From NCBI GenBank assembly GCA_041389925.1, contig JAWKQX010000006.1, positions 151,837-215,836 of the forward strand: 64,000 nt of DNA, given 5' to 3'. A program made the position numbers and the translations under genes. Origin of the DNA: Kofleriaceae bacterium (lineage in GTDB: Bacteria > Myxococcota_A > Polyangia > Haliangiales > Haliangiaceae). Of this stretch, positions 12,496-28,371 are shown in pieces. Numbering within the stretch: the first letter of the stretch is position 1; each line of letters begins with the position of its first letter. Below the pieces are notes generated by a model. The model was not told the DNA's origin and searched no databases. It worked only from the letters and a program-made list of their open reading frames with translations.

Positions 12496-12510
12496 GGCTC
12501 GCGGCTTGCA
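12496..12510 (+). promoter_or_regulatory. candidate sigma-54 (-24/-12) promoter GCGG-N10-TTGCA upstream of the NtrC-type gene
   Basis: Sequence gcGGctcgcggcTTGCAa: GG at 12496-97 and GC at 12508-09 with the canonical 10-nt spacing. TTGCA matches the -12 consensus. The -24 element is GGCT rather than GGCA. About 70 nt upstream of ATG 12583. Confidence 0.3.
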
Positions 12511-12582
12511 AAGATGGGGCAAGCAATTCTCGATATTTGCGGGAATCAGGGTTGGCATCCCGTGTGTTAGTAGACCATCCCC

Positions 12583-14097
12583 ATGTGGTCTTCTCGCGCT
12601 CATGCTGCTGCCGCCGATGCTACGGCATCCGGTGCGGGCGCGCCTCCGGGCGCCGGCGGGTCGGCCGGGCCAGGGGCCTCGGCGCTGGGCGTCAAGGCCG
12701 AGCCGGCTGGCGTCGTCTTGGTGGTCGATGACGAGCCGTCGATCGTCGAATCTCTGACCAAGATCTTCCAGCGCGAGGGGCTCACCGTGCTGGCCGCGAC
12801 CGACGGCACCACCGGCCTGGACCTGCTGCGCAAGCACCGCGTCGGCGTGCTCCTGACCGATCTGATGATGCCGCACACCACCGGCATGGATCTTTTGCGC
12901 GCCGCCAAGACGATCGCGCCGGAGACCGAGGTCGTGCTGATGACCGCGCACGGCACCGTCGAGGCCGCGGTCGACGCGATGAAGGAGGGCGCGTACGACT
13001 TCGTCACCAAGCCGCTCAAGCGCGCGCACGTCGTGCGCATCGTGCGCAACGCGCTGGAGAAGCAGTCGCTGCTCGTCGAGAACCGCAGCCTCAAGGCGCA
13101 GCTCGCCGAGCGCCGCCGCCGCGCCATCATCGGCACCTCGCTGGCCTGGCGACGCACCATGGACGTCGTCATGCAGGCCTCCCCGAGCGAGGCCAACGTG
13201 CTCCTGCTCGGCGAGAGCGGCACCGGCAAGGAGCTGTTGGCGCGCGCCGTCCACGAGCACAGCGCGCGCGCCGCGGGCCCGTTCGTGGCCATCAACTGCG
13301 CCGCCATCCCGGAGTCCATCCTGGAGGGCGAGCTCTTCGGCTACGAGAAGGGCGCGTTCACCGGCGCGGTCGCCGCCCGCGAGGGGAGGTTCGAGTCGGC
13401 CCACGGCGGCACGCTCTTCCTCGACGAGATCGGCGAGATCTCGCGGCACGTGCAGGTCAAGCTGCTGCGCGTGTTGCAGGAGGGCGAGATCGAGCGCCTG
13501 GGCGGCAGCGGCAAGCCGCGCAAGATCGACATCCGCCTGGTCGCGGCCACCAACGTCCGCCTGATCGAGGAGGTCAAGGCGGGCCGCTTCCGCGAGGATC
13601 TCTACTACCGCTTGAACGTCATCCCCGTCGCGGTGCCGCCGCTGCGCGATCGCCGGGACGACATCCCGCTCCTGGTGCAGCACTTCGCCTCGGTGTACGC
13701 GGAGAAGAACGCCAAGCCGATCTCCGGCTGCACGCCCTCGGCGCTGGCGCTGCTGAGCGACTACGGCTGGCCGGGCAACGTGCGCGAGCTGGAGAACACC
13801 ATCGAGCGCGCCGTCGTGCTGACCCGCACCGGCATCATCGACGAAGAGGCGCTGCCGCGCGAGGTCCGCGAGGCCACGCCGAGCGGGAGCGCCGGCTCGC
13901 CGCTGTCCTTCCCGCTGGGCACGCCGCTCGCCGAGATCGAGATGCGCGTCATCCACGAGACCCTGCGCCAGACCGGCGGCGACAAGCGGCTCACCGCGAA
14001 GCTGCTCGGCATCGCCACTCGCACCATCTACCGCCGCCTCGAAGGTCGCACCGGCGAGGACGCCGAGGACGGCGAGGACCCCAAGGGCGAGGCCTAG
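12583..14097 (+). CDS. sigma-54-dependent response regulator / enhancer-binding protein (NtrC family: receiver + AAA+ sigma54-activation + Fis-type HTH)
   Basis: Receiver [15 protein letters not shown]...[16 protein letters not shown]. Walker [18 protein letters not shown] sigma54-contact motif. C-terminal HTH ([18 protein letters not shown]). Lies immediately upstream of gspC. Confidence 0.9.
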
Positions 14098-14108
14098 CCG
14101 CGCCGCCC

Positions 14109-14327
14109 ATGAGCACCCCCATGCCGACCCTCGAACGTACCTTCTGGATCGTCGCCATCGTCGCCGTGCTGGTGTGCGCCTCGCTCACCATCCGGGCCGG
14201 AGCGGCGCTGCTCGAGACGGGCCTCCTCCGCGACTCGGCGAGCTCGCGGGCGCTCCCTTGGGGGAGCGCGCGGAGTGCGCCCGTCGACCTCCCCCAACCC
14301 TCGCCGCTGTCCACGCGCTGGTCGTAA
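14109..14327 (+). CDS. small membrane ORF paralogous to the GspC N-terminus (72 aa); possible duplication relic or pseudogene
   Basis: ERTFWIVAIVAVLVCAS...LLRDSASSRA aligns with GspC IKRYFWIVPVVAVMLCAF...VLGDSKTAPPARA. The DNA is also similar. ATG 14109 is 12 nt after the NtrC stop. Confidence 0.35.
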   Translation: MSTPMPTLERTFWIVAIVAVLVCASLTIRAGAALLETGLLRDSASSRALPWGSARSAPVDLPQPSPLSTRWS

Positions 14328-26508: not shown

Positions 26509-26514
26509 GCCGCC

Positions 26515-27105
26515 ATGTCAACCTTCGCAGATAACGCCAGCGACTGGTGGGAACGCAAGAACCCGCGCGAGCGCATGCTCTTGATGTCCCTCGCCGTGGT
26601 CGTGCCGATCACGCTCGCGGTCTACCTGGGCTCGTACATCAGCGACGGGCTCGCGAAGATCGAGAAGAACAACGCCACTACCCGGCGGGCGCTGTCGACG
26701 CTCGCCGATCTGCGCGCGCGCGGGCCGGTGGATCAGCCCACCGATGATCTGCTCGCCGCGATGCCGACGGAGCCGATCGGCCTGGAGAGCTACCTATCCC
26801 GCGCCGCCGAGAAGGCGAAGATCAAGATCCCGCGGTTCAACCCGCGGACGCCGGTCACCAAGGGCGGCTTCGTCACCCAGTCGATGCAGATCGACCTCAA
26901 CGACGTCTCGCTCGAGCAGGCGCGCGCCTTCCTCGAGGCGGTGGAGAAGGACTCGAACTACGTGGCCGTCACCGCGCTCAACGCAAGCCGGAAGTTCGGC
27001 GTGCAGGAGCGGCTCAACTTCAAGCTCGAGATCTCGTCGTACGCCAAGGAGCCCCCCGCGGTGAAGGCCGAGGCCGAGGGCAGCGGCTCAGGCGGAGGGA
27101 GCTAG
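26515..27105 (+). CDS. gspM: type II secretion protein GspM
   Basis: Small bitopic protein (TM LLMSLAVVVPITLAVYLG) following gspL. Confidence 0.75.
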   Translation: MSTFADNASDWWERKNPRERMLLMSLAVVVPITLAVYLGSYISDGLAKIEKNNATTRRALSTLADLRARGPVDQPTDDLLAAMPTEPIGLESYLSRAAEKAKIKIPRFNPRTPVTKGGFVTQSMQIDLNDVSLEQARAFLEAVEKDSNYVAVTALNASRKFGVQERLNFKLEISSYAKEPPAVKAEAEGSGSGGGS

Positions 27106-27108
27106 TCC

Positions 27109-28371
27109 ATGAGGCTTCTCGGCATCACCATCGGCTCGCGTGGGATGGCGCTCCTGCGCGCGATCGGGTACGTCGCGCTCGCGCTGGGCTCGTTCGTCTT
27201 CGCGCTGCAGCTCACCTTCCCGTACGGGCGGGTCAAGGATCGCCTCGTCGAGGTCCTCTCCACGAAGTACGACGTGGTGATCGGCGGCGTGGAGCGCGGC
27301 CTCTTGCCCGGCAAGATGATCCTCAACAACGTCAGCTTGAAGACGCGGGTGACCGAGCCCAACCAGGTGCCGTCGCTCTTCTACGTGAAGCGGATCGCGA
27401 TCGACCTCGGCGTGCTCGCCCTGCTCAGCAAGAAGGCCGTCCTCGACATCGAGGCGACCATCGGCACCGGCACCCTCGAGGGGACCGCGAGCTTCTCCAA
27501 GGAGCGCGCGCAGCTCGCGTTTCACAGCGACTCGCTGCCCGGCATGAACCTGCCGTTCCGCGAGCTGGTCGGCCTGCCGGTGCTCGGCGAAGTGGCGTTC
27601 AACCTGGACTTCGACTTCCAGCTCGTCCGCAACACGGTGGACTGGACCAAGGCGCGCGGCGACCTGACGCTGGAGTGCCCGCGCGGCTGCACCGTCGGCG
27701 ACGGCAAGACCAAGATCCGCCCCGCGGTCACGCGGCCGAACCAGGCCGAGTTCGTCAAGGACGGCATCGAGTTCAACAAGCTCAAGCTCGACAAGTTCTT
27801 GATGAAGCTCGAGGTCAAGAAGGGCACCGCGAAGCTCACCAAGTGGGAGGTGCCGTCGAAGGACGGCGAGGTGCACGTGGACTTCGAGGCGGCCCTGGAC
27901 AAGGTGCTCAACAACTCGCAGGTCACCGGCTGCCTGCGCTTCAACGGCTCGAAGGACCTGGAGAAGCGCGACTACCGGACCTTCGCGCAGCTCCGCACGC
28001 TGGGCGCGCCGCTCGGCCCTGACAACCTGTTCCACATTCGCCTCACCGGCCCGCTGAGCAAGGTCCGGCGCCTGGCGCAGGTCTGTGGCCCGGCCGCGGC
28101 GGGCGCCAACAGCGGCTCCTCCGGCGGCGGGACCTTCACGCCATCGCCGGCCGCCCCCGAGCCGCTGGTGCCGCCTCCTTCGCCGCCGCCCGAGCCGACG
28201 CCGCCTCCGGCGATCCCTCCGCCGACGCCGCCGACGCCTGCCGCGACCCCCGCGGTGCCGGGGGCCCAGCCGGAGCCGCAGCCGGCCGACGCGACCGCAC
28301 AGCCGGCGAACGCGCCGGCGGATCCCGCCGCGGAGAACCCCGCGGCCGCCGCGCCGGCCGTCGCAGAGTAG
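27109..28371 (+). CDS. gspN: type II secretion protein GspN with Pro/Ala-rich C-terminal tail
   Basis: N-terminal TM, large periplasmic domain, last gene of the gsp cluster. About 90-aa PAPEPLVPPPSPPPEPTPPPAIPPPTPP tail. Confidence 0.7.
   Translation: MRLLGITIGSRGMALLRAIGYVALALGSFVFALQLTFPYGRVKDRLVEVLSTKYDVVIGGVERGLLPGKMILNNVSLKTRVTEPNQVPSLFYVKRIAIDLGVLALLSKKAVLDIEATIGTGTLEGTASFSKERAQLAFHSDSLPGMNLPFRELVGLPVLGEVAFNLDFDFQLVRNTVDWTKARGDLTLECPRGCTVGDGKTKIRPAVTRPNQAEFVKDGIEFNKLKLDKFLMKLEVKKGTAKLTKWEVPSKDGEVHVDFEAALDKVLNNSQVTGCLRFNGSKDLEKRDYRTFAQLRTLGAPLGPDNLFHIRLTGPLSKVRRLAQVCGPAAAGANSGSSGGGTFTPSPAAPEPLVPPPSPPPEPTPPPAIPPPTPPTPAATPAVPGAQPEPQPADATAQPANAPADPAAENPAAAAPAVAE

Follow-up and report, generated by a model that had tools for sequence, protein, structure and literature searches.

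A probable 5' remnant of a second gspC gene between an NtrC-type activator gene and a delta-type type II secretion operon in a Kofleriaceae bacterium

What is the short open reading frame (ORF) that separates the activator gene from gspC in the locus for a type II secretion system (T2SS) of an uncultured Kofleriaceae bacterium? We analyzed a 64-kb stretch of DNA from this organism (the window; G+C content ~70%). It contains a conventional "delta-type" T2SS operon, gspC to gspN, directly 3' of the gene for its NtrC-type sigma-54 activator. The spacer between the activator gene and the resident gspC (hereafter gspC1) holds an ORF of 72 codons (14109..14327, forward strand). We think that this ORF is what is left of the 5' end of a second gspC gene, gspC2, and that it is most likely a passive leftover without a function of its own; we put the probability of this reading at roughly three in four.

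The product of the 72-codon ORF resembles the beginning of GspC. It consists of a short N-terminus, a transmembrane (TM) helix (FWIVAIVAVLVCASLTI) and a tail rich in Ala, Ser and Pro, without the periplasmic, secretin-binding homology region (HR) or the C-terminal PDZ domain. The hydrophobic segment of 19 residues has a Kyte-Doolittle value (KD19) of 2.29. The initial annotation had proposed that the ORF is homologous to the membrane anchor of GspC, and alignment of the two at both the protein and the DNA level bears this out. The BLOSUM62 local score against the N-terminus of GspC is 83, compared to 29.2±4.4 for shuffled sequences (0 of 2000 shuffles reached 83). In the DNA, 34 of 39 nucleotides are identical to gspC (87%), and none of 1000 codon shuffles reached the score of this match. 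Identity to the resident GspC1 is 41% over 39 amino acids, and the likeness runs past the hydrophobic helix, with R-x-FW before it and E-x-x-L-x-D after it. Because profile searches found no T2SSC or PDZ match (nor any other Pfam or NCBIfam family) and the product is only 72 amino acids long, its sequence identifies it as a fragment of GspC, with the N-terminal anchor present and the HR and PDZ domain missing, rather than as a GspC. There is no other copy of gspC within the window.

An open frame of this length does not by itself indicate a gene, because the spacer is GC-rich (74% G+C) and the other two forward frames are almost wholly open too. It could be argued from this that the frame arose by chance and that its likeness to GspC is that of any hydrophobic helix. 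However, the similarity score lies approximately 12 standard deviations above those of shuffles with the same composition, and similarity is also found outside the helix and in the non-coding junction with the activator gene (27 of 44 nucleotides, see below). The shuffle scores and the junction homology refute a chance origin, and we give it almost no weight.

The source of the fragment is indicated by related loci. The closest relatives of the window GspC are encoded on metagenome contigs (70-77% identity). Six of these close relatives, at 75-77% identity, have a full-length gspC2 (296-333 amino acids, Pfam T2SSC) exactly between the activator stop codon and gspC1. These intact gspC2 genes are at 2066-2974 in locus L086, 2063-2977 in L087, 2085-2975 in L090, 365-1345 in L091, 386-1387 in L092 and 352-1278 in L093, where the T2SSC match is weak. 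A second GspC paralog is also present in L003 (~450-1373), L004 (~350-1269), L005 (3-587) and L075 (~1480-2324). The second copy is found in one of two places, either in tandem between the activator gene and gspC1 or ~2.6 kb upstream, before the activator gene. In a neighbor-joining tree, the gspC2 genes and the upstream paralogs of L003 and L004 form one clade, apart from all gspC1 genes, and the gspC1 of the window is nested in the subclade that carries gspC2. The presence of two full-length GspC paralogs per T2SS locus in a subclade of Kofleriaceae is a small new observation that comes from the related loci and not from the window. In our literature searches, we came across no account of myxobacterial GspC paralogs in tandem, which is not proof of absence.

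The 72-codon ORF begins where gspC2 begins. The 44 nucleotides from the activator stop codon to the FW codons align without gaps to the corresponding region of L086 with 27 identities, which is the unique best match among 63,956 positions of the window (background 12.1±3.0). In both, TTCTGG lies 47 nucleotides from the stop codon, and the ATG at 14109, which is 11 nucleotides from the activator stop codon, aligns with the start codon position of gspC2. Similarly, blastn aligned positions 6-84 of the window spacer to positions 6-84 of the L086 interval (71% identity, E value 2e-6). The best protein match of the ORF is the GspC2 of L091, with 40% identity over 62 amino acids, nearly to the end of the ORF, and a score of 107 vs 83 for its own GspC1. 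The window shares with the gspC2 genes the first ~45-70 codons. What distinguishes it from the tandem gspC2-gspC1 loci (L086, L087 and L090-L093), with which it has the activator-gspC2 junction, the start codon position and the N-terminal TM anchor in common, is that they have a complete GspC2 of 296-333 amino acids whereas the window retains only ~70 codons.

The initial annotation suggested that the ORF arose when the resident gspC was duplicated in tandem at its 5' end. A recent duplication of only this end of gspC1 would agree with the position of the ORF next to gspC1 and with the two matches described above, 41% over 39 amino acids and 87% over 39 nucleotides. However, a comparison over the 36-codon TM core disfavors a recent local copy, because the DNA identity of the ORF to its own gspC1 (64%) does not exceed that to gspC1 genes of other species (55-67%); its identity to gspC2 genes over the same core is 58-63% (one insertion-misaligned gspC2 row, at 51%, was left out). 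In addition, the nearly invariant N-terminus of GspC1, MQDxIKRYFW, is missing from the ORF, and ahead of its TM helix the sequence matches the junction between activator gene and gspC2 in L086. The presence of an intact gspC2 at this very site in six sister lineages, and its deletion in others, is also at odds with a duplication of gspC1, and we consider such a duplication very improbable. The ORF is absent from orthologous loci, one of the outcomes that the initial annotation itself had named as refuting its proposal. At approximately 75 Kofleriaceae loci, from species-representative genomes, the match to the C-terminus of the activator ends ~10-90 nucleotides 5' of gspC and there is no small ORF. 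Searches of a collection of 5.8 billion proteins and of JGI metagenome contigs found no homologues of the 72-amino-acid product outside the same species, and the copies within the species are 100% identical in DNA.

Some observations count against reading the ORF as a passive remnant of gspC2. The tree is a simple neighbor-joining tree in which the gspC2 branches are long. The 36-codon TM core is uninformative, as it places the ORF equally far from gspC1 and gspC2 sequences, and it is therefore the position, the junction homology and the tail that support an assignment to gspC2. Furthermore, when the window spacer was aligned locally with the DNA of eight relatives, the 3' end of gspC2 was not found, the scores being equal to those of shuffles. 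We therefore do not claim as the gspC2 3' end a by-eye match in another frame, RRPPPTLAAVHALVVRRR with RRGKPLTLNVSIR followed by a stop and RRR. Lastly, the strong codon periodicity of the ORF and its preserved gspC2 start are no less compatible with a peptide that is still translated than with a recent pseudogene.

Loss of gspC2 is not limited to the window lineage. In L085 and L088, the spacers are 213 and 142 nucleotides long, respectively, and each still matches both ends of the L093 gspC2 interval (967 nucleotides), at positions 5-78 and 893-958, with 80-90% identity. L085 and L088 thus have internal deletions of gspC2 of roughly 0.8 kb. The L085 remnant ends in ...PLTLQVSIR and a stop codon, like GspC2, and its ORF is without the TM helix. 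The remnant in L088 has a frameshift and is without its stop codon. The decayed spacer of L082 (189 nucleotides, 54% G+C) contains only a faint "INRAFWGVAW", and the 66-nucleotide gap of L094 contains no detectable gspC2 remnant. Where both genes are intact, gspC2 is under weaker constraint than gspC1. It evolves about twice as fast as judged by the ratio of nonsynonymous to synonymous substitution rates (dN/dS), which is 0.19 for gspC2 vs 0.11 for gspC1 in one species pair and 0.73 vs 0.35 in another. Because of this weaker constraint and the independent decay in sister lineages, we view gspC2 as a dispensable paralog that has been lost repeatedly.

Two loci of more distant relatives have a different kind of second match. 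In L060 (5499-5861) and L068 (5389-5760), a second match to the C-terminal, PDZ region of GspC, ~120 amino acids long, lies ~0.5 kb 3' of gspC. Such a match may represent either a fragment or an additional protein with a PDZ domain.

We propose the following history for the 72-codon ORF. In the ancestor of the window subclade, gspC1 would have been accompanied by a second gspC gene that evolved faster, gspC2, located between the activator gene and gspC1. In the window lineage, a deletion of perhaps ~0.7 kb would have removed most of gspC2 and left its translation start, the codons for the TM anchor and part of the linker. What remained would now read as a 72-codon ORF to the first in-frame stop codon, 16 nucleotides 5' of gspC1. 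The remnant is probably co-transcribed with the operon, and passively so, because no promoter-like or terminator-like site parts it from its neighbors (a sequence scan found no sigma-70-like promoter or terminator between the activator gene and gspC). The codon periodicity is in keeping with either of two situations. The G+C content at third codon positions (GC3) is 0.90 in the ORF (0.93 in the 5' half and 0.85 in the 3' half), compared to 0.66 and 0.44 in the other frames and 0.97 in real genes. Since periodicity has been kept, either truncation took place recently or translation of the ORF continues.

If the ORF is still translated, the truncated gspC2 might have been kept as a functional bitopic inner-membrane peptide of 72 amino acids. 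TM segments of GspC take part in contacts within the secretion platform, and the helix of such a peptide could enter the platform of GspC, GspL and GspM and modulate or compete with GspC1. Competition by a small TM peptide had been raised as a possibility in the initial annotation. The start codon position of gspC2 and its 11-nucleotide distance from the activator stop codon are preserved, GC3 is high in frame along the entire ORF, the 19-residue segment is strongly hydrophobic, and there is no terminator between the ORF and the operon. All of these would be expected to suit a functional peptide. On the other hand, selection on the ORF is not in evidence, as it is present only in this species. 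The remnants in sister lineages have no common feature, as that of L085 is without the TM helix and that of L088 is frameshifted. At 0.90, the ORF falls short of the 5th percentile of GC3 among real genes in the locus (0.92), and no Shine-Dalgarno-like sequence precedes either of its ATG codons; gene callers give the ORF as a protein of 68 amino acids. A conserved His has also been lost. In the H-x-x-E motif, this His is kept in 159 of 171 GspC-like proteins and is Ala in the 72-codon ORF, although 12 of the 171 homologues also have no H-x-x-E, so its loss is only weak evidence. Taken together, we think a functional peptide unlikely.

A broader scenario is still more doubtful, and we mention it as a speculation. 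The remnant could be translated from the gspC2 start and its product could dock in the GspC/GspL/GspM platform and tune or poison T2SS assembly. The subclade might use GspC1 and GspC2 as alternative adaptors that couple different cargo to one secretin, and the window would then represent a stage in the loss or repurposing of the second adaptor.

We favor the passive gspC2 remnant over these possibilities, and the annotation should be corrected accordingly, with the 72-codon ORF read as a gspC2 pseudogene fragment. The locus amounts to an ordinary operon that contains a decayed paralog; what the initial annotation observed was largely right, and its evolutionary and functional interpretation was largely not. 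The sister lineages are of use beyond this correction. GspC is generally regarded as connecting the platform in the inner membrane with the secretin and with cargo selection, and for this reason a dispensable second copy of GspC provides a natural system for studying T2SS specificity.

The operon itself is as the initial annotation described it, a block of twelve genes. Profile searches against Pfam and NCBIfam, with curated cut-offs, identified gspC, D, E, F, G, H, I, J, K, L, M and N as co-directional genes at 14344-28371, all on the forward strand. The junctions are short or overlapping, with ATGA at gspH/gspI, GTGA at gspI/gspJ, and TGATG at gspE/gspF and gspJ/gspK. The block includes the components that characterize a T2SS cluster: the secretin GspD, the ATPase GspE and platform protein GspF, the pseudopilins GspG to GspK, and GspC, GspL, GspM and GspN. 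None of the 12 genes in the block encodes the prepilin peptidase GspO, which was not searched for in the remainder of the window or in the genome. GspO is often common to a T2SS and type IV pili. A scan for a sigma-70 promoter and a terminator after gspN found nothing relevant.

The genes at the start of the operon are readily assigned. gspC1 (14344..15264) is intact, with a full-length match to NF041515 (GspC_delta) at 320 bits vs a cut-off of 150 and a match to Pfam T2SSC; its MQD start is kept in 24 homologues, and its product is 100% identical to a protein in NCBI from a Kofleriaceae metagenome-assembled genome. The secretin gene gspD (15291..17732) has Secretin, Secretin_N and GspD N0 domains, all above the Pfam cut-off. 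The ATPase gene gspE (17735..19567) matches T2SSE at 457 bits and encodes an MshEN domain, and gspF (19567..20820) matches T2SSF at 226 bits, in two stretches.

The pseudopilin genes vary in how closely they fit their families. The prepilin N_methyl motif is above cut-off in GspG, GspH, GspI and GspJ. The gene for the major pseudopilin, gspG (20837..21274), has a marginal match to Pfam T2SSG, above cut-off, and a match to TIGR01710 below cut-off; its start is uncertain, with candidates at 20810, 20837 and 20843. The gspH-like gene (21278..22081) matches TIGR01708 at 1.7e-10, below cut-off, and the gspI-like gene (22078..22857) has a partial match to TIGR01707. The names of these two minor pseudopilins rest on the N-methylation motif, the sub-threshold equivalog matches and position. 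The tail of GspI (22690-22857) is a Gly/Ser repeat of ~55 residues, in which the unit SSGGGG occurs about six times. Such a tail is unusual for a minor pseudopilin, and because of the repeat, other frames and the opposite strand contain long ORFs that are spurious. gspJ (22854..23558) matches T2SSJ at 1e-14, and gspK (23558..24859) matches T2SSK_1st above the Pfam cut-off and NF037980 at 5e-16, below cut-off.

The last three genes encode GspL, GspM and GspN. gspL (24862..26508) has PilM_2 and FtsA matches and a weak GspL_SYNERG match at residues 386-517. Its product has an actin-like cytoplasmic part of the PilM/FtsA type (residues ~8-340), a TM segment and a periplasmic part, and in architecture it looks like a protein of the PilM-PilN type rather than a classical proteobacterial GspL. 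gspM (26515..27105) matches T2SSM at 32.3 bits vs a cut-off of 27.8. gspN (27109..28371) is of the Leptospira/delta type, with a TIGR04411 match of 97 bits vs a cut-off of 50. Beyond this match (residues 16-318), GspN has a C-terminal tail of ~100 residues (28080-28371) that is Pro/Ala-rich and of low complexity.

The "delta-type" T2SS of Myxococcus xanthus is the closest point of comparison. The gene set from C to N in one operon is alike, as are a GspC with TM anchor, HR and PDZ domain, a delta-type GspN and a PilM-like GspL. The window differs from the M. xanthus type in having the truncated gspC2 remnant and an insert of 2.5 kb between the kinase and activator genes (see below). In M. xanthus, the T2SS exports MYXO-CTERM proteins, and the secretin GspD forms nozzles that are needed for slime secretion (bioRxiv 10.1101/2023.06.07.544157; PMC12475490).

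The activator gene (12583..14097, forward strand) encodes an enhancer-binding response regulator with all of the features that define the NtrC family. The matches are to Response_reg, Sigma54_activat (230 bits), AAA_lid_14 and HTH_8, corresponding to a receiver domain, a sigma-54 AAA+ domain and a C-terminal helix-turn-helix, and the GAFTGA motif is visible in the translation. The initial annotation had linked the operon to a sigma-54 enhancer-binding protein, and the Sigma54_activat match, the GAFTGA motif and the adjacency of the two agree with this. The ~75 Kofleriaceae loci show the same adjacency of activator gene and gspC as the window. Because this adjacency holds in all relatives examined, including the distant L095, the coupling is a lineage trait of the family and not a peculiarity of the window. 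We found no published report of a coupling between an activator of this kind and a T2SS in our literature searches, which again is not proof of absence.

The start of the activator gene, and hence the length of its leader, is uncertain because codon periodicity is weak in the first 40 codons (12583-12702). GC3 is 0.70 there vs 0.95 in the whole gene, and periodicity is weak in relatives too. It may be that the conserved ATGTGGTC is not the true start, or that the N-terminal extension is of low complexity.

Where might transcription of the activator gene begin? The initial annotation pointed to a candidate -24/-12 promoter at 12495-12510, which we do not support. This site reads CGGCTC-N5-TTGCA, with two mismatches to the consensus TGGCAC-N5-TTGCW, and it lies in non-conserved columns of an alignment of 11 upstream regions. 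Matches with two mismatches number 12 in the window vs 18.4 expected from shuffles, that is, fewer than expected by chance.

A different, conserved element lies closer to the gene. The element TTGGCAT-CCCGT-GTGTTA (12552..12569, forward strand) is -24/-12-like and is located 14 nucleotides 5' of the annotated ATG of the activator gene. The pattern TTGGCAY-N5-GTGTTA is exact in all 12 related loci whose sequence covers this region (three of them are copies of one sequence, which leaves 10 distinct relatives), and only 0.01 chance matches are expected in the window. In about a dozen more distant Kofleriaceae the element is YTGGCAY-N5-TTGTTA, with TTGTAA in a few, and in L095, a locus with a GspC that was retrieved only as a remote homologue (43% identity to GspC2), it is TGGCAC-N5-TTGTAC. 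The dinucleotide at -12 in the conserved element is GT vs the canonical GC, while TTGGCAY and the spacing are kept in all relatives examined. We consider 12552-12569 a candidate sigma-54-like promoter with GT at -12. The transcription start that this element predicts falls almost at the annotated ATG of the activator gene.

The same alignment of 11 upstream regions contains two conserved dyads at 12449..12491, TGCCATTTTGTCAA and CTGCCAG-G-CTGGCAG. Their consensus is TGCCA-N4-TGRCA and CTGCCAG-N-CTGGCAG, they are ~60-100 nucleotides 5' of the conserved -24/-12-like element, and a similar pair of dyads is present in the distant L095. These dyads are candidate binding sites (upstream activating sequences) for the activator. 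The arrangement resembles that of NtrC-type two-component sigma-54 systems, with an activator of the receiver/AAA+ GAFTGA/HTH_8 type and dyads 5' of a TGGCAY-N5-xTGT element. It differs from NtrC-type sigma-54 promoters in that the conserved -12 element reads (G/T)TGT, not TTGC. The element and dyads provide a concrete regulatory hypothesis, the autoregulation of a module of kinase, activator and T2SS.

The kinase of this module is probably encoded upstream of the activator gene. A sensor histidine kinase of the HAMP-HisKA-HATPase type, the probable cognate of the activator, is encoded at 6912..10004 on the forward strand; these coordinates give the maximal ORF and the true start is probably later. 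In several relatives, a HAMP-HisKA-HATPase kinase of 906-910 amino acids directly precedes the activator, and the window kinase has the same Pfam domains. The last 358 amino acids of the L082 kinase, encoded directly 5' of its activator gene, match positions 8925-9998 of the window at 90% identity. In L082, L085, L088 and L094, the kinase gene ends ~140-250 nucleotides 5' of the activator gene, and these loci do not have the 2.5-kb insert (10005-12410) that parts the two genes in the window. The insert contains a hypothetical ORF on the reverse strand (10057-11091), which matches no Pfam family, and an ORF on the forward strand (11157-12410) that resembles FAD-dependent monooxygenases, with a match to Pfam FAD_binding_3 at 1e-28.

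A second set of sensory genes lies at the other end of the operon. Directly 3' of gspN, there is a gene for an H-NOX (haem-NO-binding; HNOB and V4R) protein at 28477-29025, followed by a gene for a hybrid histidine kinase with a receiver domain at 29038-30342. From their domains, these two proteins (28477-30342) are likely to be a pair that senses NO or O2.

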